DNA of 64,000 bases, from NCBI GenBank assembly GCA_003971905.1, contig RSEE01000042.1:310001-374000 (forward strand). The letters are read 5' to 3'. Below, in pieces: positions 4,258 through 53,899 of the stretch; positions within the stretch are counted from its first letter, which is position 1; every line of letters begins with the position of its first letter. The DNA comes from Moniliella sp. 'wahieum'. Lineage: Eukaryota. The notes beneath the pieces are model-generated. The model saw only the letters and a program-made list of their open reading frames with translations. It made no database searches and was not told where the DNA came from. The position numbers and the translations under genes were made by a program.

Positions 4258-5360
4258 CCTGGACCATGATTCAATGGGCTGACAGGCTGGGGCGCTAGGG
4301 CCCACGCATGCATCGGCATCACCTCATTGATCTGAGATCTGAGAATCTGATCTCTGATTCCCGCTTAGGCCTGAGGCTCAGGCTTATTCTCAATCGATTA
4401 TTCCCTTGACCTGCAGAGGCAGTTGGATGGATGGTTCAACTAGTCCAATTCATGAAGCATGGCCCCCCCCCTTTTCCCTCCCCCTCTTTCTTCCCTTGCT
4501 GTCTTTCCTCTGTTCCCTCTTTTCCCCGGTCCCCACGCTCACTGTCCCGGCTGGGCACGGTGGCCGTTTCCTCGTGACGACTGCTATTCTACCGGCGGTG
4601 TCCCGCTTCTTGTTCTTATCTTTCCCCCCTCCCCTGCGACCGCCCTCTGTTGTGTTTTCTCGCCCCTCGCCCCGCAGCGGGGTCGGGAGGAAACAGCGAC
4701 AGTGTGGCATGCCAATGGACCGCCTGCCCATCGCCGCGTGTGCGCCGTGAAGCATAGAGAGAGCAGCCCTCGGCCCATCGTTCTGCGCGGGACGATGCAG
4801 ATGATGTCTGTTGGGTGTTGGGTGGGCTTGGATTCATCTCCAGACCAGGCGAGGCGCGGGTGGCCGCGAGTGAAAGCGGCTGGGGCGGCGCTCTTTCACA
4901 TGCGCGGCCACTCGCCCCTCCCAGAGCCAACCGTGCGCCGCGGGCCAGCGCCAATGTGCGGGAAAATCAGCCAGGCAGCACAGCACAGCAGCCCCATGCA
5001 CACCATCCACCGCACACCCCCTGCAGCAGCCGCTGCACGCCGTCACCGGCCACCCACGCAGGACGCATGACGGCATGACGCACGATACCCACCCCACACT
5101 GCCCCTGTGCCATCCGCGTCGCCCAGCTGCGCTGCTGGTGCTGCCCGCACCCGCGCCCGGCACTGGCGCTGTGCGGCCCACCGCACACTGCCCCTGTGCG
5201 GGGCGGCGGGCAGGGCCAGCGCGGCGGGCGAAGGCGGCCGCAGCCCCGCCCAGCGCAGCCCACGCCCGACTTCCACTCGGCGCCTCGCACGCCCCCTGCC
5301 ACCACCTCCTCCCCCACCCCCCCGCCCCTCCCCTCTCCTCCCCCTCCGCACACTCGCACG

Positions 5361-8885: not shown

Positions 8886-9312
8886 CCTTTATCGTATCGT
8901 ATTTCTTTTGGTCCCCTTGCCTTTCCCTTCCTTTCATTTCCATTGCTTTGCGTTGTCTTTTTTTCCTGTGTCCCTTAGTGGTGCCCCATCTCGAGGCTCG
9001 CGTCCTGCTTTGTGCATTGAATGTGCCCTGGTGCAAGGACCCGGCGTGCGGGTGGTAGCGTTTTGGTTGCGAGTCTTGGATGGCAGGGGGGGGGAGGCAG
9101 CGTGGTGTGTTGCTTGTGTCTATGATAGAGTCGCTGAGAGCAAGGCAGGCAGGCGGAGGTGGAGCCAGGATGGAGCCATTCTGTGGCGCCAGAACATTTC
9201 ATTTGTTCAGCGAAGACTGGGTGCTGGCCGCTGCTGGGCTGGACAATAAATGAGGCCTGAGGCTCCGAGGCCGAAGACGTTACCTCCTCGCTCCCCCCAC
9301 CCCCCACCCAGC

Positions 9313-10778
9313 ATGCTCCTCCCTCTCGTCCGTTGCGGCTGCAGGCCGCCGCGACCACCGCGCGCCCCATCCCCGTGCTGATTGGCCTTGTGTCCCGTGC
9401 TGCCCCCCCCCCCCGCCCACGACGTACGTCTGCCCCCCCGCCCATGCGGGGCAAGTGCGTGCGTTAGTGCGTCGGCCTGGGCCGGGGCCAAAAAGGCACC
9501 CAAAAAGGGAGCTGTCAAGGGAAAGAAGGGTGTGGCGAGGGACCCAAGCCCCGACTGGGTCGGTGTCCAACAAGTTCGTCTCTTTTCTTCGTTCTTTTCT
9601 CTTCTCTTGGTGTGGCTGCCATGCGCTTCTCGAGTCCCGGCTGACGCAGCTTTAGTTTGAAGATGGGCATTGTGGGCATGCCGAATGTAGGCAAAAGTTC
9701 CTTGTTCAACCTGTTGTGCCAAAGTGAACAGGCCAATGCGGCCAACTTCCCATTTGCGACGATTGAACCCGAGGAAAGCAAGGTGGTGCTCAAAGACGCC
9801 CGCTTTGACTTTTTGGTCAACCTGTACGCGCCCAAGAGCGTGGTGCCTGCGCACTTGACTGTGCTGGACATTGCTGGCCTCACAGCGGGAGCGTCCAAGG
9901 GGGCGGGTTGGGGAACGCGTTCCTCTCCAACGTGCGTTCCGTCGACGGCATTTTCCAGGTAGTGCGCGCGTTTAAGGACGATGAGGTGACCCATGTGGAG
10001 GGCGAGGTGGATCCGGTGCGGGACATGGACATTATCTCGACCGAACTGCGCCTCAAGGATCTGGAATGGACCGAAAAGGCGTTGGAACAGGCCAAGCAAA
10101 AGGCCAAGCAGCGCACTACCAACTCGGTCGAAGCGCAGCGCCGCCAAACTGAAAACAAACCTTGGAAAAAGTGTACGCGCTGCTGTCGGAGAACCGAGAC
10201 GTGCGCAAAGGCGAATGGACCGAGGACGAGATTGAGGTGATCAACACCCTCACCCTTCTTACCGCCAAGCCGGTCATTTACCTTGTCAATGTCAACGAGA
10301 CGGACTATGTCGATCCAGCAAGAACATCTGGATGAAGCAGATCCAACAGTGGGTGGACCAGAACAACCCTGGTGATATGATTGTGCCAGTGAGCATCGGG
10401 CTCGAGCAAACCTTACTCGCCCTGGATTCTCCTGCGGACCAGGAAACGGCATTGAAGGAGTTGGGACCCAACGTGCAGAGCGCGCTGACCCAGATCACGG
10501 ACGCTGGGTACCGGGCACTGGACCTGATTTATTACTTTACTGCGGGCAAAGACGAGGTACGTGCGTGGACGGTTCGGCGGGGCACGTTGGCGCCGCAGGC
10601 GGCAGCTGTGATCCACTCCGACTTTGAGAAGCGGTTCATCTCGGCCGAGGTGATGCTGTCTCAAGATTTGATTGCTGCCGGCAGCGAAAGCGCGCTTCGC
10701 GCAGCTGGCAAGTACCACAACAAAGGACGCGCATGGGCCGTCGAAGATGGAGCGATCTGTTTCTGGAAGCTGGGTTGA
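9313..10778 (+). CDS. OLA1: Obg-like ATPase Ola1/YchF family
   Basis: [11 protein letters not shown] (G1), [45 protein letters not shown]-region [29 protein letters not shown]. Start uncertain (9313-9490); intron about 9574-9650. Confidence 0.9.
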
Positions 10779-10970: not shown

Positions 10971-11492
10971 TTAGCCGTACACGAGACGGAAAACGTCATT
11001 GTAGACGTAGAACGAGCCACCCTCGGGGTTCAGGGTGAAGGTCTGGGTGAACTGGAGTGGCGCAGGCGAGTCGTCCACCAGCAGCTTGCCCGTAACAAGC
11101 ACGACAATGCTGCTGCTGTCGGCGCCGGTCGGCTGAGCATCCTTGGTGTCAACCTGGTGCTTGACCGACTGGAAGGGCAGCGTCTTGAGCTTCTCGATGA
11201 TGGCCGCTGCGCCCTGGTGCTGGGAGCCCTCAAACGTGAGCATCGAGTGGTCGCGCTGGGGCGGAAAGAGGAAAACGGATGGGCAAGGTGAGGGTGGCGC
11301 GGCAAGAGCGCGTGGGAGCAGCGGGGCACAGGAGAGGGGTACGCACGTAGAGGGGCGCCAGGGCGTCGCGCGACGAGTCGAACTGCGAGTAGTAGAAGTT
11401 GACAAACTGATGGAATGCGGATCGGAGCAGTCAGTACCCAGACGTCGGCGGGGGCGGGGGCGTGGGCATACCTGGTCGGCGATGGACTCCAT
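10971..11492 (-). CDS. NTF2: Nuclear transport factor 2
   Basis: Exons 11472-11492, 11347-11406, 10971-11255 splice cleanly to [50 protein letters not shown]. Confidence 0.96.
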   Translation of the reverse strand: [173 protein letters not shown]

Positions 11493-12144
11493 GGCTGGGC
11501 AGCGGCGCGGCGGGTGGTGGCGAGCAGCGGCGGATGTCGGCGTGTGGGGTGGGTGCTTCAGCACGCGCACGCCTCTGCCTCGGCTGCTGCTGCCCAGAAG
11601 CGCAGAACGCATCCGCCAACCCTACTGTGCCCGCCCCGATGCGAACGCAGCCAACACCGAGTCACGTGACCCTGCAGTCGGCCATGGCCCGCCTGATCCT
11701 AGATGGCACTGGCCAGGACGCTGTCCGATCGCAGAGGGCTGATGCATCGCTGATGCGCTGGTTGCTGGTGCGCCTGCCTGCCGGCCTGCCTATACGACCA
11801 CAGCGTCCAGTGTTTGTTCCCTTGCCCGCTGGGTGGCCACCCGTCGTCCACCCCTGTTATGGACGCCGCGGACGACGGATTCGATAGCCGGCTAATGATC
11901 ATGGTGTCCCAGTAACAGTAAGTGAGGGCAGGGAGGCAGTGATAGGGAGGAGAAGAACCGCAGTGGGGTGAAGCGTCGAGTCCAGACGCAGGAATAGGTG
12001 AGGAAGAGAACGCGGGGGATGGCACAAGCGCAGTGGAGGCGGAGGGGAGACGGGCGTGGTGCCGCAGGACGAAGACCAATGTGATTCTGGGCTATGTTAT
12101 GGGCTGGCCCTCGGACCGACCGCCGTGGTGGGCAGCACAAGCCT

Positions 12145-13136
12145 TCACATGTTGGGCTGTACGCCGAGCGACTTGGCTTTCGTCCAGGCCGCATCCACCC
12201 GATCCAGCATCGACTGCACCAACTTGACCGCACCCTTTCGTGCCTGTCGCAGCTCATCCGTCTGGGCATGTACATTGTCCAATGACAACAGCTGGCGCAA
12301 TAGCAGCTCGGACAGCTTCTTTTGCTGGAAGACAATCTGGTGTAGGTTGAGGCGACCAGCGGCTGTGGCATTGGGCCCAGTTAAGCGGATGTCCTCTGGT
12401 GCCAGCTCTTGCAATTCCTGGGTCTTTTCCAGGCCTTCTTGTCCGACGATGCTACGCTCTTCTCAAGTTGTTCCACTTCGGGAAGCAGTCCACTTCAGCC
12501 ACCCGTTGCGCTTCCTGAATCCGCCGCAAAATGCCTTGGTCCGACTGGTCTGCCTCAGCTGCCTTTCGCACTGCTGCAGCGGCTTGTTGCGCTTCAAATT
12601 CGGCGGGGGACGGGAGCTAGCGTGCTCGGCGGCTGCACCGCCATGCTTGCTTTTGGAATGCGAAGGATGCGGCTGAGTTGTCGGCTGTTGACTCTGCTTG
12701 CGAGGAATGCGATCTGGCTTGGCCCGGCTCTCTTTGCCCACCAACGTGACTCTACCGCCATCTCTCAACCGATACTTGTACAGCGGCGCGCGGTCGTCCT
12801 TCATAAGCACGCCGCCCGCGACGACTTGCATCTGGTCGTACGGGATGGAGGTGGCAGCCGAGAGCTGCCTCTTGAGATCAGCAAGGGTAGGGGCGTAGGA
12901 CGTTGGCGGCAGGTCAATGTAAAGCCTGCATTGCATATTGAGTCAGTCTCATAGACACAAAAACAACGTTGGCGGTGGGTAGCCAAATGAGGGTACGCAC
13001 GTCTGCGGACCCCAGCGCACCTCGAGCCGGGGATGGGTTCGGGGGAAGGAGGGCCGGATTGTCTCGCCGGTGGCGTGGTGGAGGGCGAGTCGAAGCCAGC
13101 GCCCCATCGAGGCCAGTTGCCGCTAAACCAGGACAT
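12145..13136 (-). CDS. BAG-family Hsp70 cochaperone (ubiquitin-like + BAG domain)
   Basis: UBL: TLADLKRQLSAATSIPYDQMQVVAGGVLMKDDRAPLYKYRLRDGGRVTLVG. BAG: LSELLLRQLLSLDNV..RQARKGAVKLVQSMLDRVD. Intron about 12926-13000. Confidence 0.85.
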
Positions 13137-13796
13137 GGAGGTTGCTGCTGTGGACGATACGCGGCGAGGGGGGGCTGGGGAGGTCGGGGAGGTGCGGAGC
13201 GGCGAGGCGAGGCGAAGCAAAGCGAGGGAATCCGGCCTGAGTTCAACGTTGAACATTCAATAGGCAACCGCAGTTCAAAAGGCCCGGTGGCTAGAGCGTG
13301 GTTTGAAACATTCAGTGCGTCATCCAGACTTCTTGACACATGTCACATGTCATGCTGGCGCTGACACCGAGGGGGTGGCTGTGGTTGTGTTTTTTTCCGA
13401 GGGACATACCAAGTTGAGAGCGACTCGGAGAAGTGAGAGTTGAGAATTCTGGCGTCGAGCGGGATTGAAGGGCGTGGATTCCAGGCATATGGAACGTGAT
13501 GCGTTGGTGCACTTATACCACCCAACGCTGCTGGGGGCAAGTCGTGTTCGGCTTAGGTCGCGGAGAACGCGTTGGGTATGGGACCCCATTTTGCTCCAGT
13601 TCCATCTGGTGTTTGGTGTGGGGGGCCGATAGTCGAAGAACGGCAAGGAGCGGGCGAAGTGCTTCAGCTCCACCACGTTGGGGCGATGGAAGCCACACTG
13701 TAGTCCTAACTAGCACTCTAGGACTAACTTGACATGGATCGCACTGCGGGTTCAACAACTATACGCGGGATGGAAGGCATAAAATGGAAATGACGT

Positions 13797-16700
13797 CTAC
13801 AGCACCGAATAGCGCCCAGGCGCAACTAGGGCCCCGAGCATCCGCCTCAAATACAGCCTGAGTCGCTTCAAGGAGGATCATCTTGATCTCTCGGATCGCA
13901 TGTTCGATGCGCTCGGGTTCGTTGGACTCGATGAGCAGTTGAAGCTTGGGTGGGTCGCCCAAGTTAGGCTCTTTGCCCTTATCGTAGAACGCGCCTTTGG
14001 AGGTGACCGATGCCCCAGTAGTCTCGACCAACATAGTCATCGTCTCCTTGTTCGTCACGCGCCAGCGGGATTTCTGGGGGAAGTCGTTGATGGGGATGAT
14101 GGCATGGAAGTCGGTCGCGTCGGGGTCCTTGGGTCGGCGCGCAGGGACAAAGCCCTGGGCAGCGAGGCTGGCCTGACGAGCTTCGTGTTGCTCCTTGATC
14201 TTCGACAGGGCGGCCAAGAGCTTGGAGGTGTCTGCGCCACTGGCCGCGGCCGACTTGATCGCTGCCTCCATCATGCTCTGCTGCTGCGCCGAGCGGTTCA
14301 AGTTGGCGTCCTCCGGGGGAGCCTGGATCTTGTTTTCTTTGATAAAGTCGGGCGCAGGGCCCTTGCGTACCTCGATCACCATATCGTTTATGCCGCTTGA
14401 TTCCTCACCACCTTCCGCCGCCGCGCCCGCAGCACCGGCACCCTCCTTGGCGCTTTCCTTGCCTGCTGCCGCCGCCTCCGCCGCTTCTTCGTCACCTGCT
14501 TGGCCGAAGGTCGACTGTTGTGCCTGCAGCGCTTTCTTGCGGTCCGAATCAAGACGCTCCAGACCCTTGCCACGGAAGCCCGAGCCAGACGCATGAGCCT
14601 TCCCAGTCTGTACTTTCTCACCAAATTTGGTAGCCAAAGCTTGCAGCTCGGGAGGAACAGCAGTGTTGCTCGCCTTCAGTGCCGACACAATGTCGCGAGC
14701 GAAACGTTCTTGTTGGGGTGTGATGAATGTAACCACTGTCCCACGGTTGCCCGCACGCCCCGTTCGCCCCGCCCGGGTGCACATAGTCTTCCAGGTGGTT
14801 TGGCACGTCATAGTTGATCACCAACTGGAGCTGCTTGACGTCCAGCCCACGCGCCGCGACCGAAGTGGCAGTGACAATCGGGACGACCCCTGCCTTAAAG
14901 TGCGATGGTCGAGTCGCGGTCCACTTGATCTTTGCCGCCATGGATGGACATGGTAGGGTACCCTTTCCGCATCAACTCGCGCAACAGGTCGTCCGCCGAC
15001 TCTTGTCGTTCCACAAAGATCAGCGTACGGGCATCCTCATCATTGTACGTCTTGCCCAAGATTTCGAGCAAGCGGGTGAACTTGGTGTCCTCCTCGCGCA
15101 CCTCAACCAGTTGCTCAATTTCCGGCGGAACCACGCTCTTGCCCCCCACAACAATCTCGAGAGGCTTGTGTTTGAGAACCTTGCGCGCCAAGCTCTCCAT
15201 CTGCTTGGGAAAGTCGCAGAGAATAAAACAGTTTGACGTTCGGGGCGAATGTTGTTGACAATGTTGGTCACCTGCGGTTCAAATCCCATATCAAACATCC
15301 GATCTGCCTCGTCCAGAACCAGGTACGTTACCCGGTGCACGTTGGTCACCCGCCCCGAGTTGGCTGTCAAGAGGTCAATCATCCGTCCCGGCGTCGCAAC
15401 CACAATCTCGGCCGTCTTCTTCATCTCGGCGATTTGTTCCGAAATGGGCACACCACCATAGACACTAACTGCTCGTAAGCCCAGACCACGCAGAAATGGA
15501 CGACACTCGCGGTAGATCTGCACGGCCAACTCGCGAGTTGGAGTCATGATCAACGCAATGGGACCTTCGCCCGGCTCGAGTGGACGTTGGTCTTTGATGT
15601 GCCGCAGCATTGGCAACAGGAACGCCATCGTCTTTCCCGACCCCGTCTTTGCCACCCCAATCACGTCCCGGCCGGACATGGCCGGGATGGCCTGGGCTTG
15701 GATGGGCGTCAGCTTCTGGTAGCCCAGCTGCTTGATCACCTCCACCGTGTTGGCCGGTAAACCAAGATGACTCCACTTGGTAATTGGCCGTGGGCAGTCC
15801 TTGCCACGAATTGAGATGCCGTCCAACTCGCGCCGAAGCTCGTCGCCTCTTCATCGCTCATCTCCTGCACTTCCGCAGGCGGGTGGTAGAAGGCTTTGCG
15901 GAACGGCTCATACTCTTGCTTGCTGTGGTCCGTCTGCGGCATGCCTTTCTTCTTGATGTTCTTGGCCGCTGCCGTCATGATGGCATCAATATTGGACAGC
16001 TTGCCCAGCTGGTCTTCCTCCTCTTCCTCGTCCAGGTCTTCCTCAGCATCGGATTTGCCGTCGAGCTCCTTCCGTGCATCCGTCGTACCATGCGATGCGC
16101 CCACTCGTGTCCGATCCATCTCGTCCACCTGTTTCACCTCTTTCTGACTGAAGCCATATAGGCTTCCAGTGGATCCTCCTCTTCGAGAGAATCGACTCCA
16201 TAGCGGCGGCCGCAATGGGCGCAACATTGTCTTTAGACAGGACCGGCTCGTCGCTCAAGGCCGAACCGGAGGAACGGTTGAGCAGCCGGGACAACGATGG
16301 TTTCTTAGGAGCTTCTTCCTCAGCCATATGCGACAACTTGAATGGGGTTGTGGACTTGCGGGACGTAGACCCCCCCACGAAGAGCAAATCCCTTGACTCG
16401 GCCTGTCTGCAGGCTGGCCGGCTCTGGAGGAAGGAAACAACAAAGACAAAGAAAAACAGCAGTCAGTTAGGCAACATTCAACGTCAATCGATCAGGAGGA
16501 AAACGTACTGGCCGGTGGGGGTGGGGCCGACACGGTCGCAGAAGGGCCCTTGGCGGACAGACTCGGATTGGCACTCTTATTTGCCTCTTCTTCTTTTTTG
16601 GCCCGCCGCCACGCCTCGAGTCGGGCCTTCTTGGAAAGCTTGTCGGTCTCCTTCGGGGCCGGCGTAGTGGTGCTGGAGGGGGTGGATGCTGAAGCAGGAG

Positions 16701-17087: not shown

Positions 17088-17678
17088 GGTGGCGCTCGAT
17101 GCCGCCGCTGCCAACGGCGACGGAGACGGCAAGGACGCCTCCGCTGCGGCTCGGGCCCCCGCATGCGGACGGGGGGCATGGCGCCCGTTCCCAAGGCCAC
17201 CGCCAACAGGCGTGGCGTTCTGGCGGCGGTCCCAGCTCATGGCAGGTGTAAGTGCGTGCGGAATGCAGCAGCCAGCGGCGATGGTTGCCCAAATGCCGCC
17301 GAGGGCGCGCAGGCGCAGCGGGGGCCCTTGGCGGGTTACGTCAGCTGCGCCCTGCTGGTTCCGTCGGGCGTGTGCATGCCCTTCCAGAGAAGAAAAGCAG
17401 CAGCAACCCTACTTATCCTACCAGCCCCGATGGTGTCCATCATCCATCATGCATCATGCACCATGCCCCCCTGCAGCCCATGGTCGGCTACGTCTCGGCT
17501 ACGAATGGGGGACTGGGACGGAACATCAGACGAGGCGAGGCTGTGGGATGCGAATGGCAGGGAAATTGGATTGGTACACATGAGTGAGAGAGATGCAGGC
17601 CGAGGCAAGGGGAGTAGGAACGAGGCGGGGGAGCGGGGATGGCATGGTAGCTGCCACCTTTTCATCCGTCGGGAACAG

Positions 17679-19109: not shown

Positions 19110-20701
19110 GGCAAAGGCGAGCACACCCAGAGGAGAAGAAGTATGGCGTGGTGGCGGTGGTGGCGGTGGTAGGAGCACAGAAGCAAGCAAAGTTGTGTGG
19201 GGGGGAAGGAGAAAAATGGGCAAATGACCGCCAGAGCTAACTAACGTCTAGCCGTCAGCTTCACGTTGCGGCGCGTAGACAACCCATAGAAAACCTACGG
19301 TGTGAGCATGGGGCGGGCGTGGGGCAAGACGGGTTAGGCGTTGAGAGTTTGCAGGTGTGAATCAGTGATGAATATGCATGCGCGTATTAATCACCACCGT
19401 CGGGCGTTTGCGGCCGGCACCCGCGTACCACGTCTTGGACATGGTGGCGGGTGGTGGCGGGCAAGTGGAGCGAAAGGGTTGTCTGATCTACGTAGCATGC
19501 GCAGCCGGTAGCATGTAGCGTGTCGTGTGTGCGCCCCCTTGGCCAGATTCAAAGAGCGTCGAGCCTCCCCACTGTGTGGCGCAGCCATCAGCATGCCTAC
19601 GCATCATGCACCACACATCAGCCCTCCGTCGTCTCATTCTCCTCGTCTCATCGACTCATCGCCTCATCCATATTCGATCGCAATATCGCATCCCACAGCC
19701 CATGGGCCCAGACTGAGGCGCTGAGACGCTGAGACGCTCTGACGCTGGAGGCCCTAGTAAGTGTTGCCCGAGCCTCAGCAGTGCCGAGCTCGACTCGGTG
19801 CAAGCCAGCCGGCGTGATCGAGTGATCGTGAGGCGGTGACTATGAGCCTCACACGCCTCTCAGGGCCTGAGGCCCTGACCTGAGGCTTCCAGGTTCTAGC
19901 TGCTTCAGCTTCATGCAAACTCCATGTGAAGGTGACTGGTGACCTCATGTCACTGGTAAAGCCGGTGAGCTTGAACTTCCAGTTGAAGCGTGTGGCGTGT
20001 GGACATGCTGGACAAGTGGACAAAAGACCGTCCCACCCATTCGCCCATGCTTTGATCCCATCGCGCTACGGCATGCGTGGGAAATGGAGATGGACGGTCT
20101 CGATGATGGATGATGCCGATGATGTGTTGTGCAGGGCGCATGTGCATGATGCATGATGGGTGATTCGGCCTTCGAACGGCGGCCAGGCGGGCTTGCTAGC
20201 TCCATGCTACACGAGGAGAGCAGTGGCAGGGGGCGACAGGAGGAGGATGTGTGATGCTGATGGAGACGCAGAATGTGTGACATGTGATGATCGATCGATG
20301 ATCGATGATCGCGGATCGAGAGAGCTATTCATTAATCAGCGACAATCGACAACGGTTGAATTCTTCGTTCTGAACAGTTTGGGATCGCTTGAGCTTGAAG
20401 CGTGAAGCAAGCTAGTCCAAGCTTGAGTTCCTTGAGTACCTTGCGCTTCAAACAAAAAACCACGCCCCCAGCCATGATGCATGCATGATGCATGACGCCA
20501 AATACGTGGCGCATGGCGCGTAGCCAGTAATTAAAAAACAGCGGTTGCTGCGGCTGCTGCGCCTACTCGACGATGGTTGGTCCTTGGATATCTCTGGTTC
20601 CCGGTGTGGCGGCCACATACTTCCGAGGGGCCCAATTATTTCGAGGCCGTCACACGAAGGCATGGGTGCCCTACGCACGACACCCTCACCAATCATCATT
20701 G

Positions 20702-20728
20702 CATCATCATCATCATCATCATCATCAT
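20702..20728. repeat. (CAT)9 microsatellite
   Basis: catcatcatcatcatcatcatcatcat read directly. Confidence 0.9.
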
Positions 20729-23509
20729 TATCGACCCCATGTAGCTCCGGTTTGCCGATATGCACCGTTTCATTGTCCCTGTTCAAGTTCTGTATTACTG
20801 GTATGAAAAACTCCAATAGAAAACTAAGTACTAAGTACTAGTACTGCCTTCAACGCACTGTGGTGGTTGGCAGAGCAAATTAGGCCTCTGTGCGGTGACC
20901 GGTGACCAGCCAGTGACCATGGAGTTCACGCCAGATACTTCTCCTTACTAGTTACTCATTTTGCGTTAACGCCATTTACCGGATATACCCGCCGCGTCTT
21001 CTGCCGCGTCCAGCCGCCCCTTTTTCTTCACGCTCTCCCACCCAACCCCCAACCCCCTGGCACACACAATCGCGGCGCACAGGCACAGGCACAGCAGGCT
21101 GGGAAGCCCCTCAATCCTGCATCCAGAGCTTCATCGAAGATTGCCCCCTCCCTCCATAGTGGGTGGGTAAATGGCGTGCGCTAATGCGACGAATGCATCG
21201 TCGGGGACCGGGGCTTGTTGAATCCCATGGTCACATGCCACATGTCACACCGCCACAACGCCTCCCATAGAGCTGAGCTAAATTTCGCCGTGCCTGCCTT
21301 CTCGGAGCACCGGCCGCTCCATACCCAAAATTCATATGCTCCGTGTCAGCAGTGACTATAGTGAGGCTCGCTGTATAATACGCGCTCCAACCTAGTCACT
21401 ATGTTCACATTGTTCACAACAGAACGGCCTGGTTCATTTCTACAGAAGCGCGGTGGCTGTCGTCGTTGGTCAGGCGCCCCAAGCTGGGGGGGCTGGCAAC
21501 AGCTCCGGTGCCGCAACGACGGCGGATATATCCCAGGAACCCTTAATAACCTGGCCTAAGGGCTAAGGCCTCTAAAAAGGACTAAAGGCCTAAAAGGCCT
21601 AAAATTCAAAAGGTCTGACTAGTAAGCCGGTAACTCTAGTAAGGCTCAGCTCCCGGCTTTGGGCCAGCCACGGCAGGCCACGGCTACCCAAATTCCCAAA
21701 CTCGTCCTTGGCAGAGGGGATACCTCCGCGGTCCCGGCCAATCAAGTCCCCTGTTGTCACGGGCTGCGGCGGACCCAAGATGGTCCGACCCAAGCTAAGG
21801 CCCGCCTGCTCCGCACATGCCAAGTAGAGCGTGCACCGCAGGCCAATCAAGTGTGATGACGGTTGGCTAAATTAAGTACCGTGGCCCGAAAGGTCATGCT
21901 CCGTGCGACAATAGTCCCCCCGCCAAGTCCAAGTCGGCCGGCCTAAATAAGGCCACGAGCTTCCAGTGCCGTGGCGACGACTGTCGCCCCGTCCCCGTTT
22001 CCTTTTCCTTTCTCGTCGCGCCTGCGGCGACCAACCCCGCTTTTGACATGTCTTCCTTTCTACACCCCCTCTTGTATCCGTTTCCCTTTTTGATCCTGCC
22101 TGTACCCTGGTTGATGGGGATCTTTTCCCCCACCTTCCATTCTCGTCATCTCTCGTCTCCACCCTCGTCCCTTCCCGCCTATCCTGTCCGACTCCTGCCC
22201 GTTTTCCAGCCAATTGATCCAGTACAGGCAGCTCCTCTTGTTAGCGCCCGACATCTCCGACCTCGTCCTCCAGCCCTTCGTCAGTCCAATCGCGCGAGCC
22301 CTCCTTCGGTCGCGGCGATTCCCAGTCCCAGTTAAGGCAGTGTTTGTCCGCCGCTGCCTCCTCCCGTCCCTCAGTCCCGGAGGCTTCAGACCGTTACTAA
22401 GGCCCAGTCCAGATGCTCCAGAAGAGGCTCCAGAGAGGCCCACGGCGGTCTGTTTATCTGACCAGTGAATCTAGTCAGTGACTAGTGAGGCTGAGGTGAT
22501 CCGGAGATCACGCGTCACGCGCCACGAATGACATGTGACAATGATTAAGGAAATTTAATGCCAGGTCCCCGGACTCGGCGCAACCAGCAACCCCCAACCT
22601 CCCCCGCAGCACACCCTGGCGCTGAAGCGCTGAAGCTTGAAGCTTGAAGACAAAAGGGGGCCGGAGAAGTCGGAGAAGCTCATTGAGCTCAGCGAGCGCT
22701 CATCGCTCATCCGTCACGGTCACTAGGTCACTAGTCACTTGGTGCTAACGGACATGCCATCCCGTTGTCCATTGACCGAATAGAAACCATCGACAGTCCA
22801 CCGGCAAATGCTCAGCGGCTCAGCGCTGAGCGAGCGCCCATATGCCACAAAAAAGCTGCATCAGCCATCTGCATCATCAAGTCAAGCATTTGCTTTCTTA
22901 GGCTTTGGCCTTAGGCCTTGGACCTTACCGCTTACCGCTTACCGGTTACCTACCCGGAACCGGGAGTTACCGGCCGGTTACCATCAGCGCCTCAGCCTTT
23001 CAATCGTTGCACATTGTGCCCAGCGCGGCCAGCTCATAAAAACCCCAACAAGCAGTGATTAAAATGATCGCAACACAAAGCCCGCAATAGGCCACAACTC
23101 TCTGGAATCAGGTACCTCAGTGGTACCTGCTCGTCGTCTGGGGATCATGCATATCATGCATCATGCACGGCGCTCCGCCACACATTATAATACTTGGGTC
23201 GGTCGATGGTCGCACCCCTGTTGGCACGCTGTGCCTGTGGCGGCGCCAGACTAAACGAATCCGTCAAGCCACGCAGATGAAGTTGTGGAACTTGTGCATT
23301 ATGCCACCTGGCTGTGCCTGTACGTGTGTGACGGTCTGACATACGGCTGCGGTGCAAAAGAGGCGGGGGGGGGGTGGTCTCATTAGCATTATCCACACCT
23401 GCCCCACACCTCCTGAAGGAGTGTATATCCCGTGTGGATACGAGCATGCGCCGCGGCAGTGCTGCGGCTCGCTCTGAATTGATATCATGACACGCATGAT
23501 GCGGAGGGT

Positions 23510-23620
23510 CTTCAAGCTTCAAGCTTCAAGCTTCAAGCTTCAAGCTGGAAGCGCCGTAAGATCTAAGATCTAAGATCTAAGAAGGAAGCTTCCGGGTTCA
23601 ACGTTCAACGTTCAACGTTC
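23510..23620. repeat. Three adjacent 7-bp-period palindrome arrays: (AAGCTT-C)4+, (AGATCT-A)3+, (AACGTT-C)3
   Basis: AAGCTT at 23514, 23521, 23528, 23535; AGATCT at 23559, 23566, 23573; AACGTT at 23600, 23607, 23614. Confidence 0.95.
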
Positions 23621-26600
23621 GATACGTGACGGGCAGTGCGTGACGCCGCGACAAGCCAAGCCCAGCATATATGACCTCGAAGAGACTGTAAGGCAATAAC
23701 GGCACTAATAAGAGAGAGAGCGATCGCGGCGAGCGGTGTTCAGTATTAATTGCAAATTGCTGAAGAAGTAGTGATGGATTAACGGCAACGTAATATATAC
23801 CCCCGCCATGCTTTTTTGGATAGCGGCTTGATGAGATCGATGAGCTCTCGCATCGCTATTCAATTCTCATGTGCACCAAAGGGTTCGTCGCAGTAACAGC
23901 GAGAGAAAGGCAACAAAGGCGCACAATGAGCTCGAGTCACTAGTCACATGTCCCGCAGTCCCCTCATACCAGCTATAATAATCAGGTAAATCTTCTCCCA
24001 GTACTCTTCACCGATCCTGTCTCCTTTCTCTCTTGTACCAGTGCTTCCCTTCAGTGCTTCCCTTGGTACGTGGCTCTCACTCGTATCGTCCGACCCTTAC
24101 ATGTTACAGCTCTCTGTGTGTCCTTTAACGCGTTTTTATATACTGCGACGAGTTTATATATGCCGCTCAGTTTTTGTTCCCACTATGTTCACTGCAGTTG
24201 TTCACAGTTTGCATGTGCCTCTCTCATGCCTCAGTGCCTCATTGAATTTCCACGCTGACGTCACATGTCACAGGACACGCCACCATCGTGACGCCACCAA
24301 CCGAGCCTACCCAAAATGTATACCCAGCAAGAAAGCTGTGGGGCCGTCGCGCTCATTTTTGTCAACCAGCATCAGCCGCCCAGGGGTGCCTCCGGGGGGA
24401 GGTTGGGGGCCCACCGGTGCAGGCGACACTAGGCGACACCACGCCATCTAGCGAGGATGGGCTTTGGGGCATGCTGGGGCACCCATACTGTCGGCACTGG
24501 AAACGGGCGCTACTCCATTACGTATAGACACCACACAAGCTTTTTATATTCGCCTCTCGACATAATCTGATGCGTATCTGCACATCCCATCAAAATCGTC
24601 GTCATACTGACCCGAATCCCAGTGTGCTAGTGTGCTCTCGAAGAACAACAACCCCACCTCCTCTATTGTAGCACAGCGGCCCGACGGATAGGATCTCGAT
24701 AACATGCCAACACCGTATTAAGTGCGCGCAAGGAATGCACAGACACGCGGACCGTGACAGATGGAAGTGACTGACACGGTGTGTTGGCAGATAAACGGAG
24801 TCTGGCACTCGCATCAACATGGTTGATGAGTTACATCGCTGTGGTGATTTCCCAAGTGTTTTCTTTCACGCCGAGATGAATTCTAGACCCCCTGCAAGAA
24901 TCAATTCACTTTCGTCAATGAAACACATCATTTGTTACTTGGACATTCCATGGTCTCACCAGTTCCCCCTCCCAAACCTGCCAACAAGCCAGTTCAAATG
25001 GGGGCATCCAAAGTCTCCATATCGAAATTCCTTGTGCCGTTCCTGTTTGCGCAAGCGAGAAAGCTCGCGTGGCAACATGTCACCCTTGGTGGTCTATATA
25101 AGCATTGCCAACAACTTCTCAAACAGCATAATCCTAGTAATAGTGAAAGCCAACTCGTTCTTCGGTACACCCGTGTTGTTGTTCGTATATACCCTGATCA
25201 TTGGAAAAGAAGAGATGAAGCCAGGCAAAGAAGTCACCGTGCGTAAGGATCACCACCAGTAGTGAAGTGATCACAGTGAGCCTTTGGATCTATCACTGTG
25301 AATAAGGGAGACATAGAGCCCTCTCTAAGTTCTCTCGTGTAATGATATGCATGTACTAAATGGGAATTGGAGGGGACTCATGAATTGGCGTTCATTTCAG
25401 AGCGGCGCTCACCCACCCACCCACATAATATGAAGCTCACATCTCCGCAATCCTCCCCCTCCCCCCCCCACACACATGCCACGCAAGAGAAAGACTCGAT
25501 TCCTCTTCTTGAGTCAAAGAAGGATTGCGACAAAAGGATATCAAGTACCATGGGCAAAACAACCCAACTTTTGGCTCGTTAGTGATGAGCTATGGCGAAT
25601 GATCTTACGCCCATCATGGTAACAATCCATCTCTACTTTCTGAATCTATATCATTGATAGAGCTTAAGGCTGGGACAGGGGAACGCTAGGTCTAAACCGA
25701 ACCGTTCATCTTGCGGGGGTTACTTGGAAGCGCCACTAAGGTCAAGGACCAGGGGGATCGCCAGGATATCAGGACCCTCCGGTTCTCGCCATCCGGTCCC
25801 GTACCCTAGGAAGCGCGTGTGGACACGGATGAACGTGGTTGACATCCGAGCGAGGAACCATTCCCACTGAGACTTAGTAGCCAACTCCTTCCAATGCGCA
25901 AACAACTTGCCCGCTGTCTTGGTGCCGTAGTATCCTCGCGTCGTCAAAACCCATATGCGAGTAGACATCAAAAAGTGCCAACAACCCTACTGCTCCCCGA
26001 CCGAGTCGCGTCGACGCGCCGCTCCACCACCTTAAAAGGGGAGCGGTGGTGCAAAGAGAGTTAAGTGGTGGAGAAAGAAGGAAATGTGGAGAGCAATTGA
26101 GGTATTTGCGACAAAGATACGGGGGGGGGGGGCAAGAAGAGGGGGGGGACAAAGGGGGATGAGTGGAACAAAAGGGAGGGAATGGAGCAAGGATGATCGG
26201 TGGTCCAGAGAGGTGGTGGGCTCGATCCATGTAACGTGAATTACGACGACCCTGTAACAGGCGTGCCCAGCCGGGGGACTCACCCACGTTGGTGAGGTAC
26301 AATCCCTTAGATGAAGGACGACTCACGGTAGTTTCGGGCTTGGGCTTTTGGTGGATCCGAGCCGAGGAGAAGCCTTTGGGCGTGAAGCCGAGGCGGCCGC
26401 ACCCTTGGCAAGGCTGCATATGCGCCGGCTTGGGGTAGTAACGTGTCTGAATCCTCCCGGGCTCAGGGACGGGTAGATGCAGTGGAGGACAAACACTGCC
26501 AGAGCTGAAGCTGTGGGCAGGGGCGGCTGTCGACGTAGCTATGAAGGGAACCCACGCGATATGCTCTGTGATACGGGGAATCGACGCGGCTGAAGGAAGG

Positions 26601-26869
26601 CTCGCGCGACTGGGCGGATGGAAAGCTGGAGGACGAGGTTGGGTGATGAAGATGAGGCAGGTAAGTGGAGACGAGAGGTTTCCTGTATTACTCAATCAAT
26701 TGGCTGGAAACGGTCAGGAGTTGGACAAGAAAGGCGGGAAGGGACGAGAATGGAAGGTGGGATAAAGGATTCCCACTGATCGAGGATACTGACTATTGGT
26801 TGACCCCTTTTTGGTAACACCCTCCTGTCTACTGGCATAGATGTTAACAGAGCGAGAAGCAGATGAAGC

Positions 26870-27127
26870 TGCTAGAGTGCGACTTGATGGGAGCACTCGC
26901 GATCCTATGGATCAGCTGCAAAGCAGCCTTCAGACAAGGTGTGAAGGCAAAGTGGTGAGCAATGAGCCAAAGTCTTCAAGCAACGTCTGAACCGAAGGAG
27001 ATAGGAGAGCAAGAAGGGAAATGAAGCGAGCAGGGCGTGCGCGCCCTGCGAGCGGAACTCTTCCGCCCGGCTAAGCGAGCGTCACCGATCCACTGAGGGC
27101 CGTGCAGGGGAACCCCAGCACTACCCT
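26870..27127 (-). mobile_element. Solo LTR, copy A (same family as 45979-46233)
   Basis: Reverse complement aligns over its whole length with 45979-46233 and ends CTCTAGCA. Flanked by GAAGC direct repeats (26865-69, 27128-32). The first 6 bp (TGTTAG) appear lost or altered. Confidence 0.8.
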
Positions 27128-27810
27128 GAAGCAAGCGATGGCTGCAAAGGCTGCGAAGGCTGCGAAGGCACTAAGAATATCATCCGATAGCACTTCCTCG
27201 TGTACTATAATCACTCGCCTTATTCGAGTTTGAGAACAGTGGAAGACTATGCCAGAATGTCGGACGTCATTGGATCGCTATCGTTGTGAGGAGTAGAGTG
27301 TGAGTAGTTACAAAAGCGGGTGGAGTAAGCCTGACGATGGACGGTTGTGCCCTGCCTCTCCCTCCTCAAGCTTTTTGGCCATGTTTAATCCCAGACTAGT
27401 TACGCCACACCTCCATTGTTCCCTCGTTAGTTTCCCCCAGAACTGGTAACAGGACTCCAACTCGATAGAGGGCATACCACTACTGTAGGATAGGCGCCTA
27501 GCTTCGTCTTGTCCAACCTCCTCCCCTGTATGAAGCCGTACATCGTTACGAATGAACAGCACAGACCTAGTGCACGATAGTGCGTTCTATACCTTCTTTC
27601 GAGGCGCTGAATGATGTCCAATTGGCGTTCACCTGATTGGCCTGATTCCAACTCAAAACGATGCAGACCAAACTCACAAGTGGAGCCACCCTATACCGGT
27701 TGTTCCTCTCATTGTCCTCTTCAAAAGAGCAATGCGCAGAGCGCTCTGGCTCAGTATGCCAAATCGAACCTTGTAACATGTAACGTATCTGTAGCTTGAA
27801 GCTTTCCCTT

Positions 27811-27855
27811 AAGAGTCACTAGTCAAGGTTCAACGTGCAACGTTCAACGTTCAAC
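27811..27855. repeat. Mixed in-phase heptamer chain
   Basis: AAGAGT-C-ACTAGT-C-AAGGTT-C-AACGTG-C-AACGTT-C-AACGTT-C-AAC. Confidence 0.85.
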
Positions 27856-27998
27856 TTGAGCGCTTCAACGTGTCGCGTCCCAAACCAGAGCGCCTGTGTG
27901 GACCAATCTCGAAACCGTTACATCACAGTAGCTGGGATTCAAGCGGACCCTTGTGGGCAACGTGATGTAGGCCAGGAAGCCCCGAACTGTGTCCATTA

Positions 27999-29517
27999 TC
28001 AAGCACGCTTCTGGATGACAACCGCATTGAGCAGGCCAGCCTCCTTGAGCGTTTGGGTTTCGTCTGTGAGTGCCTTGGCGGGAAGCTGGTGGTAAGAATG
28101 AAAGACTCGGGGCTTGAGCCCGAGGCCGCCAAGAAGCGACGCACGTCAGCCACAGTGTGAGTCTGGTTGAACTTCTGAACCAGTCGGGTGCCATCTGCCA
28201 AGCGGAGCTGTAGCGTGGTGATGGGCTGGGAGGAATCCAGCTCGAATTGGGGCGAAGAAGCGGGCCCGGCCTGGGTCGCCGGCGCTGCGTCTGCAGTACG
28301 GGATGCCGAGACGGAGGAAAGGGCGGGGGAAGCCCGGCCAGAGGAGGTCACGGGGCTTCCGAGGCGGTTGCCTTGCCCCGCAAAGGCCCGGACCGGGCCC
28401 GGAGGTGGTGGGGTGTAAGGCTGGTCTATGCGCCGTTCGATGTGCAGGTCAACTTGCTGGTCCGGCCGCACATTGAACACGGAGTTGGGTGCACGCTGGG
28501 ACTCAATGGCCCGAAGAAGCCGTTGGTTTTCCGGGTTGTCGTACCGATACAACTCGGAATCTTCCACAGTGAAACCATCGGCCCAGAAAATCAAATGGCG
28601 CACAGCCAGTTCGTCCTCCTGCTCTTCCTCCTCAGGCTCACCGGTCTGACCCTCGCCGACTTCAGGCTCTGGTGCATTGATCGAACGCCCGTGGCCCCAG
28701 TGGTGACCGCCAGCACTGCCATCGTGTTCTGGTCCACCAGCGGCAGAAGGGGAAGGGGCGGGTCCCCCCTCAGCAGCCTGGCGAAGAATGTTGTTGACCA
28801 AGTCCATCCCTTCCCCTTCGTTGCCATCTGCGTGAGCCCGGGCCAAGGCCTGCAGCATACGCTGACGCCGCTGGGCTTCGGGGTCCTGGACACTCAGCCC
28901 ACTCCGCTCTCCACCAGTGTAGAGGTTGGGCGTGTCTTCTTCATCCGAATCAGGACCATCATCATGCTGCAGCCGCCAATGTTACCTTGACGATACGTGC
29001 CATGGCCATGGCGGCTAGTGCTGCTACTGCCGCCTTGGCCACTGCTCGAGCCAAAGCCATGCACGTTGGAGCCAATCCCGGATCCACTGCGAGGCCCTTG
29101 GCCCGCCCCATCCCTAAGACTGCCCAGGGTGGCGATACCTGTCCGGCGCGCACCAGATGGAGCCGAGGAGCCACCGCTAAACCCGTGCAGAGGATTGGAG
29201 CGTGTCTGGGGGGCACTTTGGCTGGGCCACGGGTCAGCCGGAGCGGGGGGCCGGACAAGGTGCGTGGGCCGACGTAACCAGGTGGAGCCTCTGGAAAGGT
29301 AAACAGACGTGTGAGCACAGGAAGGCAGCGCAAGGAGCACCCGAGACGTACGGGGTGTAGCAGTGGGAGCCGGCTGAGGCTCAGGCTCGCCTTCCTGCGC
29401 GGCCAAGTAGGTGGCAACAGCAGTCTCCAGGTTCCCGTCTGCAGTTGCAAGGTAGCTGCGCGCGGTCTCAGGAGATGCGCCTGTGAGGTCGGCAAAGTGG
29501 GCGACGGGGTCGGTCAT
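27999..29517 (-). CDS. SHP1: Cdc48/p97 cofactor Shp1/Ubx1 (p47): UBA-like, SEP, UBX
   Basis: HFADLTGASPETARSYLATADGNLETAV; SEP RHLIFWADGFTVEDSELYRYDNPENQRLLRAI; SHP box FAGQGNRLGS; UBX TTLQLRLADGTRLVQKFN..TSFPP..AGLLNAVVIQKRA*. Confidence 0.95.
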
Positions 29518-30103
29518 GGCAGCGGTCGCCGGTGGTGGAGGGGAGGCGGGGGTGTGGGTGGGCGAGGTAGTGGCTGGGGCAGCGTGCCAGGCGGAACTGC
29601 GGGCGGAATGGTGGGCTGGCAAGGGGATGTGAGCGTGACGCGTCAGCGCCAGGGCTGGCTATGTGCTGCGTCATCGATCATCGGTATCAATCATCAACAC
29701 CGTGCGACAGGCACTGACGTCATCGTGCCGCGCCGGATGCGGATGGCAGCGGGCCGCCGCCAGAGGGATCGGGGTGGGGGGCTCGGCTGTGAGCATGCGC
29801 AGCGTGCACAGCACGGCGGGCACGCGTCTGCCTCTGGCATTGGCGCGGGCCCCCGTCCCAGCCGCTTCACTGCCGCCCGCACAGCTCCTCCCGGCGCCAG
29901 AGCCCCATCCCCATCGACACGCGCCTGCTCCATGGGGCTCACATGTCACAAGCGGTGGTGATGCCGGTGATGTGATGGCCCACCCTCATTTGTCATGCGC
30001 AGCAATCCAGATTAGTATAGCCGCCGCCATAGCCCCCTTCAGTCTGTCTCCCCCTTCGTGACGCCGCCACCATCCACCATCCATCACCCCCACCCCCCCC
30101 ACC

Positions 30104-31528
30104 ATGGTCCTCTCGGGTCTCCTTGGCGGCAAACACGCCCACCACCATCTCTCCTCCCATGCGCCTTCCAACTCCCCCCCACCAGCGATGATGACAGCCG
30201 TGTGGGCGGCGACGGCGGCGAGGAAGAGCAGCTGGACGACGAGAACGGCAGCATCTTGCTCCATTTGATCAGCCAGCTGCGCATCGGCATGGATCTGTCC
30301 AAGGTCACCCTTCCTACCTTTGTCCTCGAGCCACGCTCCATGCTCGAGCGCATCACCGACTTTCTCTCCTACCCCGACCTTATCTTTGGTGCGTCCCAGC
30401 TCAGCGACCCCGTCGATCGCTTTGTTGCCGTGACTCGCTATTACCTCGCCGGTTGGCACATCAAGCCCAAGGGCGTCAAAAAGCCGTATGTACTGGGTTG
30501 ACAGCCCAATCCTAACCTGGGTGGACCTGTTCTACGTTCGACCGTTCTATTGACACTCTCCTTCCCTCCCACAGCTATAACCCCATCTTGGGCGAGTTTT
30601 TCACTTGTTCGTACCGGTACCCTGACGGCTCCACTGGCCATACATTGCCGAACAAGGTTCGTCTCCCCCTTCTTCCTTTCTTCTGGTTTTGCTTCCGTCC
30701 TTACTTACTCCCTGTTTCCTTGTCAGTTTCTCACCATCCCCCGATCAGTGCCTACTTTTACTGTGCACCCGAGCACAATGTCGTCATCTATGGGGAACTG
30801 CGACCCAAGAGCAAATTCCTGGGCAACAGTGCAGCCACCCTGATGGGCGGAGAGAGTCGCGTCGTGTTTCTTGATCGCCAATCCGCCCCAATGGGATTGG
30901 GGAAGATGTGATTGGGATGCCCAACATGTTCGCCCGCGGAATCATGTTTGGCAAGCTGCTGCTCGAGTTGGGCGATACGTCTAGGATCGAGTGCCCCGCT
31001 ACCGACACCTCGGCCTCGGTCGAGTTTAAAACAAAGGGCTACTTTTCCGGAACCTACAATGCGCTCGAGGCCAAGGTCATGCACGCTCGCAAGCAAGTTG
31101 GGCTTGTGCAGGGCAAATGGAGCGATACGATGACCTACACTGACATGCGCACCGCAGGATCCAAGGATGGTGACATTGGCGAACAATCCATCCTTTTTTC
31201 TGTTAAGGATGCACCCACTCCAGCGGCCAAGTCAGTCCGGCCTGAGGCGGAGCAGGCGCCAAACGAGTCGCGCCGGCTATGGAACGGAGTGACAATCGCG
31301 ATCCAGAAGAAAGACATGCATGCCGCCACTGAGGACAAAACGGCATTGAAGATGCCCAGCGGGCTCGGGCCAAGGAACGGGAAGAGAAGCATATCGAGTT
31401 TGAGCCGCACTACTTCGTCTATGTGCCCAGCCTTGGCCATTACTTGCCTCGCACGGAGTCGTTGCCGCCTGCCTTCCAAGCCCCACCGTTGTCTCGTACT
31501 TTGCCTCTCTCCACACTGCGTGAGGTAA
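30104..31528 (+). CDS. Oxysterol-binding protein homologue, Osh6/Osh7 subfamily
   Basis: ILLHLISQLRIGMDLSKVTLPTFVLEPRSMLERITDF, KKPYNPILGEFF, VSHHPPISA, PKSKFLGNS, ESRRLW. Introns about 30486-30574 and 30657-30726. 3' end approximate. Confidence 0.92.
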
Positions 31529-53803: not shown

Positions 53804-53899
53804 GGCAATGTGCCCGAGTGGTTAAGGGGATTGATTCGAACTCCAGTTTGAAATATCAATTAGGCTTCGCCTGCACAGGTTCGAGTCCTGTCATTGTCG
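53804..53899 (+). tRNA. tRNA-Ser(CGA) with 14-nt intron (53841-53854)
   Basis: Acceptor GGCAATG/CATTGTC + G73; D loop GAGTGGTTAA; anticodon stem ATTGA/TCAAT with CGA at 53837-39; long variable arm AGGC-TTC-GCCT; T arm ACAGG-TTCGAGT-CCTGT. Confidence 0.95.

Follow-up and report, generated by a model that had tools for sequence, protein, structure and literature searches.

A 64,000-nucleotide stretch of contig RSEE01000042.1 (Moniliella sp. 'wahieum'), hereafter the window, carries 34 short tandem arrays built on a single geometric rule: each unit is a 7-bp odd palindrome centered on T-N-A (TNA), that is, a hexamer of the form A-xy-y'x'-T plus one spacer base. We observed that the arrays are direct repeats, that duplication at period 7 is restricted among self-complementary units almost entirely to the TNA class, that single copies of the same palindromes are not enriched, and that the arrays lie in intergenic DNA. 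This very non-random pattern suggests an unusual mode of repeat formation. The arrays are of the microsatellite type and apparently represent an undescribed class. Our preferred reading, to which we assign a probability of roughly 40%, is a lineage-specific mutational bias, rather than selection for a protein-binding motif, in which tandem duplication of heptamers is followed by slippage, with both steps nearly restricted to TNA-centered palindromes.

Period-7 duplication is concentrated in TNA-centered palindromes

Pairs of the form P-N-P were counted for all 64 hexamer palindromes P at spacers of 0 to 4 nt, with 200 third-order Markov simulations as background. At spacer 1, 19 matches were detected, all of them A....T hexamers, distributed over seven cores (AACGTT, AAGCTT, and ATGCAT, four each; ACATGT, AGATCT, and ATCGAT, two each; AGTACT, one). 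The simulated count for this class had a mean of 0.02 and never exceeded 1. Hexamers of the C..G, G..C, and T..A classes gave no spacer-1 match in the window, and spacers 0, 2, 3, and 4 gave 0 to 3 matches.

We also counted all exact period-7 runs of 13 bp or more over the whole window, and 79 were found versus ∼14.6 expected over all classes. Reverse-complement symmetry was present in 35 of the 79, and the odd center was T-N-A in 34 of these (0.12 expected; maximum, 2). The sole symmetric exception has an A-N-T center (TTGCAA+A at 23748), and runs centered on C-N-G or G-N-C were absent (expectations, about 0.6 and 0.5). Non-symmetric units account for 44 runs where 13.2 would be expected, and the excess is ∼280-fold for the TNA class versus ∼3-fold for other heptamers. 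Near-symmetric runs, in which one pair is broken, were likewise TNA centered in 10 of 19 cases. Since T.A was not over-represented in the non-symmetric runs (12/44, against a chance estimate of ∼14), palindromy is required in addition to TNA.

Neighboring periods behaved differently. Symmetric units of period 5 showed no TNA bias, period 6 showed no such class bias, and symmetric units were absent from all 23 runs of period 8 and all 17 of period 9. Both symmetric period-11 runs, TGA+(TCGA)2 and TGA+(TGCA)2, obey the grammar of the arrays but carry two copies of the 4-bp core. Repeats of period 8 and 9 at 19639-19747, 20422-20443, and 45308-45354 also contain TGA or TCA (CTCATCGA, CTGAGACG, CTTGAGTAC, GCTCACCGG), as do 11 of the 23 period-8 runs.

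Outside period-7 runs, TNA-centered palindromes occurred at the expected frequency, with counts of 571 versus 567 for an arm of 2, 155 versus 150 for an arm of 3, and 39 versus 38.9 for an arm of 4. The surplus of TNA palindromes and A..T hexamers in the raw counts is therefore contributed entirely by the arrays. Expressed as a proportion, about one in five TNA-centered 7-bp palindromes is duplicated, versus essentially none of the ∼780 in the other three classes.

Arrays are direct repeats with a constant spacer

Tandem Repeats Finder (TRF) detected three perfect period-7 arrays of 3.6 to 5.3 copies side by side at 23510-23620; together with the 79 period-7 runs, these show the head-to-tail repetition beyond chance that marks heptanucleotide microsatellites. 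Array lengths (n = 34) were 13 bp in 14 cases and 14 to 19 bp in 17, followed by 25, 26, and 37 bp. The cores were ATGCAT (8 arrays), ACATGT (5), ATCGAT and AGGCCT (4 each), AGATCT and AACGTT (3 each), AAGCTT and ACTAGT (2 each), and AGTACT, ACCGGT, and ACGCGT (1 each), 11 in total. Spacer bases were C in 14, G in 14, A in 5, and T in 2, a tally that counts the A of the exception TTGCAA+A.

Adjacent TNA-pal4-TNA pairs, where pal4 is the 4-bp palindrome, agreed in their spacer base in 53 of 62 cases, whereas 6 had complementary C/G spacers, and all eight strict TNA-pal4-TNA-pal4-TNA 17-mers contained a single core. The shared spacer base of neighbors indicates that the arrays are direct tandem duplications rather than products of micro-inversion. 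Coherence of spacer strand within clusters was not significant by a runs test (14 runs versus 18 expected; z about -1.4). Besides the exact arrays, TRF found degenerate arrays of 4 to 8 copies at 75 to 90% identity (17438, 27823, and 51739), which look like older arrays. At 22619-22649 and 22718-22743, a period-8 array gives way to one of period 7. When internal paralogous segments were compared for traces of array birth, homology stopped short of the arrays. At 4358-4385, a run of CTNAG units keeps its flanks constant and changes its N (CTTAGG-CCTGAGG-CTCAGG-CTTATT), the opposite of the constant N of the arrays.

Read as a single strand, 23500-23630 is predicted to fold at -25.2 kcal/mol (z -4.3), and none of 200 shuffles folded as well; the predicted structure consists of 5- to 6-bp stems with TCA triloops and 1x1 mismatches. 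In prediction, then, the single strand outperforms matched shuffles, as expected of a hairpin- or cruciform-forming element.

Two further roles for the TNA center were considered and set aside. U-turn-like T-N-R loops found a counterpart in just one near-symmetric array, with T-N-G. A stop-codon or upstream open reading frame (ORF) role, in which TNA reads as TGA, TAA, or a complement and period 7 closes three frames, was rejected because arrays showed no bias toward the starts of long ORFs: a long ORF began within 200 nt of 5/34 arrays in the TGA/TAA sense and of 3/34 in the opposite sense (medians, 1446 and 848 nt). Against the same role, array orientation relative to Pfam-supported genes was mixed, and in 19250-25870 TAG/CTA was not enriched (0.92) while TCA/TGA, the most over-represented trinucleotide, reached only 1.20.

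A sequence-only reading of the window had described three different arrays lying side by side at 23510-23620, together with a T-N-A/4-bp palindrome/T-N-A geometry independent of the core. Both descriptions agree with our data, the geometry being specific to A..T hexamers in 19/19 P-N-P matches and in 34 runs versus 0.12 expected, and the P-N-P count against a Markov background that it had proposed gave the predicted spacer-1 excess. It had listed 12 of the 16 possible cores; the variety of cores is real, with 11 of the 16 present as exact direct arrays of 13 bp or longer. AGCGCT at ∼1282 and ∼22822, which it took for a tandem repeat, is instead the midpoint of a perfect even palindrome whose spacers are complementary (TCA-GCGC-TGA). 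Its caution that some sites are only partial repeats was correct, several having 1.9 copies.

The TNA bias in other DNA

As a control, we used metagenome contigs that contain (AAGCTT N)3 with up to 10 kb on each side, giving 121 stretches and 640 kb. This set was selected on one core and is not a random sample, with flanks that are unbiased for other cores. With the seeds masked, same-N TNA-pal4-TNA occurred 66 times in the control, compared with 72 for the corresponding ANT class, 36 for CNG, and 43 for GNC. In contrast, the window, a tenth of the control's size, contained 53 TNA, 1 ANT, 4 CNG, and 3 GNC examples. The control flanks held 496 period-7 runs, of which 45 to 46 were of the TNA class (∼28 of them extra AAGCTT repeats close to the seed) and 9 to 10, 8 to 9, and 14 to 15 belonged to the other symmetric classes. 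As far as tested, the TNA bias is not general to DNA.

The side-by-side layout exists, thinly, in a distant basidiomycete: contig L075 carries (AAGCTT+C)3 followed directly by (ATCGAT+T)2.5, with AACGTT+C ∼500 bp away, and the named relatives of its kinase ORF are Agaricomycetes only (43 to 47% identity). A second control, of viral contigs with an AGCT core, gave 68, 7, 3, and 32 stretches for A..T, C..G, G..C, and T..A, and was set aside as confounded, since the 68 A..T stretches came mostly from contigs of ∼36 to 41% GC that each hold several AAGCTT+G/C arrays. Many of these IMG/VR contigs (L232-L299) carry several separate AAGCTT+G or AAGCTT+C repeats each, up to five of them extra, as if one virus group used the heptamer repeatedly as a signal. 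In a metagenome contig, L062 (41.5% GC), long arrays of the TAA-containing heptamers CTTAACG/CTTAAAG at 3700-4100 and 5020-5210 flank a gene in opposite orientation.

Genomic setting and catalogue of arrays

The window reads as nuclear DNA of an Ustilaginomycotina-like basidiomycete. GC content is high (about 51 to 69% in 2-kb bins across the window), and the threonine aldolase ORF at 54363-55400 has Tilletiaria anomala as its top named match (67% identity; two other matches are closer, at 80% and 69%), followed among named matches by Thecaphora, Tilletiopsis, Violaceomyces, and Pseudozyma. Genes were placed by Pfam matches on ORFs, with 280 of the 308 ORFs of at least 100 amino acids scanned. 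The arrays span ∼55 kb and are set in unique sequence; none of the 34 lies within a Pfam-matched stretch, and one touches the edge of an ORF (Table 1). The array-rich region at 19.2 to 25.9 kb had no Pfam match, nor did five further ORFs near the main arrays, and a comparison of ORF 23990-24448, beside them, with proteins of 84 to 268 amino acids gave no homologue at E ≤ 0.001. An Rfam match at 53804-53899 may be an intron-containing tRNA gene.

Several other features of the window were recorded. Long purine-rich, GGGAGA-like low-complexity tracts occupy the + strand at 46300-48600, where GC is 61 to 69%, long ORFs overlap, and Pfam gave no match. A ∼270-bp segment occurs as two inverted copies of ∼90% identity (96% over a 55-nt core) at 26880-27130 and 45990-46230, each with an array cluster a few hundred bp away and without an Rfam match. 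The inverted paralogous stretches of ∼350 bp at 22115-22470 and 26445-26775 (∼80% identity) enclose the 4-kb region with the main arrays and may be a duplicated exon of a gene; the ORFs concerned, 22115-22465 (+) and 25877-26695 (-), had no match in Pfam. A third inverted pair, of ∼93 bp and 83 to 86% complementarity, lies at 25626-25718 and 37345-37438. Many ATGA-containing repeats lie upstream of the P450 gene, and a perfect TGACGTCA site (CRE/ATF-type) stands among them at 45602-45609.

Table 1. Arrays and predicted genes in the 64-kb window (arrays as core hexamer + spacer base)
Feature	Position	Strand	Details	Source
AAGCTT+C	23510-23546		37 bp, 5.3 copies, perfect	TRF
AGATCT+A	23557-23582		26 bp, 3.7 copies, perfect	TRF
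AACGTT+C	23596-23620		25 bp, 3.6 copies, perfect	TRF
Purine-spacer cluster	20102-20907	+	Holds the arrays and units listed next	
GATGATG, near-symmetric	20102-20115		In 20102-20907	
ATGCAT+G	20143-20158		In 20102-20907	
Period-11 unit TGA+(pal4)x2	20286-20306		In 20102-20907	
ATCGAT+G	20293-20311		In 20102-20907	
TGAAGCG, near-symmetric	20396-20408		In 20102-20907	
Period-11 unit TGA+(pal4)x2	20473-20494		In 20102-20907	
ATGCAT+G	20481-20495		In 20102-20907	
AGTACT+A	20823-20840		In 20102-20907	
ACCGGT+G	20893-20907		In 20102-20907	
Array cluster	22508-23167		Holds the six exact or near-symmetric arrays listed next	
ACGCGT+C	22508-22521		In 22508-23167	
AAGCTT+G	22631-22649		In 22508-23167; period-8 unit GCGCTGAA just before	
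ACTAGT+C	22727-22739		In 22508-23167; period-8 unit GGTCACTA just before	
AGGCCT+T	22907-22919		In 22508-23167	
CTTACCG x3, near-symmetric	22924-22944		In 22508-23167	
ATGCAT+C	23153-23167		In 22508-23167	
ACTAGT+C	23935-23947		13 bp	
ACATGT+C	24260-24272		13 bp	
Cluster immediately 3' of SEP-UBX gene	27772-27871		Also holds partial AAGCTT and ACTAGT repeats	
ACATGT+A	27772-27784		In 27772-27871	
AACGTT+C	27838-27855		Within degenerate 7-copy array 27823-27871	
Cluster upstream of P450 gene	45519-45786			
ATCGAT+G	45519-45537		In 45519-45786	
ATGCAT+G	45551-45567		In 45519-45786	
ATGCAT+G	45752-45770		In 45519-45786	
ACATGT+G	45771-45786		In 45519-45786	
ATGCAT+C	51739-51794		Perfect part 51747-51764, rest degenerate (7.7 copies); 17 nt from first ATG of minus-strand ORF	
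ATCGAT+C	801-816		16 bp, upstream edge of MADS-box ORF	
AGATCT+G	4329-4344		16 bp, then CTNAG-unit run with varying N at 4358-4385	
AGGCCT+G	9251-9263		13 bp	
ACATGT+C	13337-13352		16 bp, between DEAD-box and BAG genes	
ATGCAT+C	17445-17460		16 bp; array 17438-17466 by TRF	
ATCGAT+C	29671-29683		13 bp, SEP-UBX/OSBP divergent gap	
AGATCT+C	37669-37681		Within mixed-core run 37663-37700: TCA-GATC-TCA-TCGA-TC-TCA-ACGT	
ACATGT+G	38452-38464		13 bp	
AACGTT+G	42561-42577		17 bp	
AGGCCT+T	49466-49478		13 bp	
ATGCAT+G	53605-53617		13 bp	
AGGCCT+A	55576-55589		14 bp, between threonine aldolase and Tsr1 genes	
MADS	2-811	-		Pfam
ANTH	1563-3583	+		Pfam
YchF	9645-10775	+		Pfam
NTF2	10974-11621	-		Pfam
BAG	12148-12462	-		Pfam
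DEAD/KH	13762-15850	-		Pfam
SEP-UBX	27926-29658	-		Pfam
OSBP	30016-31525	+		Pfam
P450	42904-43564	-		Pfam
tRNA (candidate)	53804-53899		96 nt, 47 bits; no ARAGORN call	Rfam
Threonine aldolase	54297-55397	+		Pfam
Tsr1	55963-58591	+		Pfam
Gpi16	58736-60563	+		Pfam
RasGEF	60801-62660	-		Pfam

Candidate mechanisms

Under a mutational bias, a 7-bp unit would be duplicated head to tail, and copies would then be gained or lost through slipped-strand mispairing, both steps being nearly limited to 7-bp odd palindromes centered on T-N-A. A looped-out unit or pair of units could self-pair, forming a hairpin that contains a T-N-A triloop and 1x1 N.N mismatches; such a self-paired slipped intermediate might persist or evade loop repair, while non-complementary 7-nt loops would be removed. 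We infer both the hairpin intermediate and the neutrality of the arrays. Microsatellite-like lengths, decayed arrays, the general ∼3-fold excess of heptamer duplications, the predicted triloop hairpins, and the absence of a gene-orientation signal (5 versus 3 of 34 arrays) are consistent with this reading, and single copies at expectation argue against a transcription factor motif. The sequence-only reading had likewise doubted that a single such motif could be responsible, in line with the 155 single 7-bp palindromes seen versus 150 expected, and it had rightly held that plain slippage is insufficient, because slippage leaves the class restriction unaccounted for.

Several observations weigh against the mutational bias. 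C..G and G..C hexamers would form stronger stems, yet they gave 0 arrays from ∼300 single-copy precursors each, and all-G/C cores were not favored (6/34 arrays). Palindromic units of period 9 would fold better, yet 0/17 period-9 runs were symmetric. The first duplication, from a single copy, is beyond slippage. Two runs violate the one-unit rule: successive different cores occur at 37663-37700, and N varies among the CTNAG units at 4358-4385. When the spacer is read as a purine, 12/34 arrays end exactly after T-R-A-x-y versus 4.9 expected, a polarity that the reading does not predict. Finally, everything comes from one 64-kb window of one assembly. Palindromic flanks of any sequence imply that the DNA must pair with itself, and a step of exactly 7 with a center of exactly T-N-A implies that a fixed geometry or chemistry is also involved; we can name no single known process that supplies both. 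An undescribed site-specific process that duplicates exactly 7 bp at TNA-centered 7-bp palindromes of any sequence, although unlikely on our estimate, would combine a fixed protein geometry (7 bp, TNA) with DNA self-pairing. For example, a symmetric nuclease or topoisomerase-like enzyme might act on a mini-hairpin or cruciform that forms transiently, after which the ends would be filled in and joined.

Selection of the arrays, in promoters or untranslated regions, as cis elements read by their structure, whether as small DNA or RNA cruciforms and hairpins on either strand or as homotypic sites for many different dimeric factors, is also unlikely. In its favor, arrays occur in promoter-bearing gaps (MADS/ANTH, DEAD/BAG, UBX/OSBP, upstream of P450, and threonine aldolase/Tsr1), the two short convergent gaps are both free of them, different cores adjoin in clusters, predicted folding is far above that of shuffles (z -4.3), and contig L075 repeats the layout in a distant basidiomycete. 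ACGCGT and the full TGACGTCA site are known fungal motifs. However, single copies are not enriched (155 versus 150; 39 versus 38.9), a single geometry is common to 11 unrelated cores, adjacent dimer sites at a 7-bp distance would probably overlap, many arrays are decaying (13-bp remnants and arrays of 75 to 90% identity), no orientation bias toward genes was detected, and structure alone does not demand T-N-A. We consider it rather improbable that a two-fold symmetric DNA-cutting enzyme targeting T-N-A, for instance a DDE transposase, an integrase, or some other dimeric nuclease, has left the arrays as footprints. In one version, fill-in and rejoining of breaks staggered by 7 nt would leave a target-site duplication without an insert; in another, a 3-bp TNA duplication would flank a 4-bp palindromic remnant, as from PIF/Harbinger-type excision. 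Each event would recreate targets in either version, and arrays would grow unit by unit. Such an enzyme would account for the fixed 7-bp step, the first duplication, the same N in 53/62 pairs, and the strict center; a TNA direct repeat flanking the putative remnant is present (same-N TNA-pal4-TNA, 53 versus 1, 4, and 3), the period-11 units are TGA+(pal4)x2, and where x = G (CTNAG) the spacer is A or T in 5/8 arrays, versus 1/26 for other cores. CTNAG with an A/T spacer resembles the CTTAG-type target of PIF. PIF/Harbinger and IS1031 duplicate TNA targets, and TNA-centered palindromic targets include GCTNAGC of Tn10 and GTWAC of HIV. On the other side, the flanks are palindromic but arbitrary (11 cores) and so unreadable by a protein, the remnant version would need 11 families of element ends, TNA alone is insufficient (T.A in 12/44 non-palindromic period-7 runs versus ∼14 by chance), no transposase domain was found in the 280/308 window ORFs scanned with Pfam, and the window has no long direct repeat family.

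Repeated micro-inversion, by hairpin capping and off-center opening or by fold-back template switching at TNA, to give arrays with two symmetry centers 3.5 bp apart, was the mechanism put forward in the sequence-only reading, and we now regard it as very unlikely. Inversion or fold-back would complement the central base, whereas 53/62 adjacent pairs share it and N is uniform along arrays of up to 5 copies; moreover, odd palindromes outside arrays are not enriched in any class. A minority of inverted-type sites does exist, namely the 6/62 pairs with complementary C/G spacers and the perfect palindromes CTCAGCGCTGAG at ∼1282 and GCTCAGCGCTGAGC at ∼22815. Related events are reported in yeast: fold-back templated inverted insertions of ∼5 to 34 bp (PMC11724301) and quasi-palindrome template switching (PMC5677150). 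Like the arrays, these are short mutations dependent on self-complementary sequence, but they yield inverted copies, in contrast to direct copies with an unchanged central base. An artefact of assembly, amplification, or sequencing is extremely unlikely, given 34 arrays with 11 cores over 55 kb of unique sequence, some of them degenerate in a manner resembling age, and the presence of (AAGCTT+N)3 in at least 121 metagenome and 68 viral-contig stretches of other projects. No artefact known to us generates heptamers made of TNA plus a palindrome.

Relation to known repeat systems

Hairpin-forming microsatellites and "cryptic simplicity" involve self-complementary units (for example CAG/CTG, or AT-rich ones) that grow via slipped hairpins. 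The arrays share with them non-coding direct tandem repeats, predicted self-pairing, and turnover with decay; they differ in combining a 4-bp palindrome of any sequence with T-N-A at exactly period 7 and in that stem strength is not predictive. With TNA-targeting transposases and integrases they share the T-N-A dyad center, the same-N direct repeat, and a fixed step. Unlike PIF/Harbinger-type duplications, they have no intervening element, their palindromic flanks are arbitrary, they reach 5 copies, and the window ORFs scanned contain no transposase domain.

Long heptanucleotide simple-sequence repeats are known from prokaryotes (Mrazek, Guo and Shah 2007, as summarized in PMC4679880), among them those of Xanthomonas and Nostoc and the TAACTGA repeats, and polymerase slippage was proposed as their cause. 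The same account describes a proposed special status for 7-nt units in prokaryotic slippage, and period 7 may, by analogy, reflect that general property here. On that account, the resemblance extends to short head-to-tail arrays, mostly intergenic location, locus-specific units, no established function, and the prominence of period 7; in addition, TAACTGA, like the TGA/TAA-spaced units here, stops all three frames of one strand. However, prokaryotic units are not self-complementary, and any symmetry arises from two opposed arrays, as in contig L062. Such inverted array pairs were not seen in the window, where arrays are single and the unit itself is palindromic, with an obligatory T-N-A center, a eukaryotic host, and 2 to 5 copies. 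A literature search that included repeat strings found no description, in fungi or elsewhere, of a heptamer class made of TNA plus a 4-bp palindrome (subscription journals lay outside the search). The suggestion in the sequence-only reading that the process is undescribed is plausible, with that search as its basis.

Implications

The birth of microsatellites is less understood than their growth. Here the first duplication seems to be bound by a rule: a 7-bp unit, self-complementary, with a T-N-A center. This rule can easily be tested genome-wide and across Ustilaginomycotina, and the class-specific excess (∼280-fold versus 3-fold) offers a countable read-out for tracing, in tractable fungi, which pathway of repair, replication, or nuclease action is at work. 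If the arrays are selected, they would be promoter elements defined by symmetry instead of sequence. If a site-specific process is at work, it would constitute a new mutational signature that seeds microsatellites in promoters.

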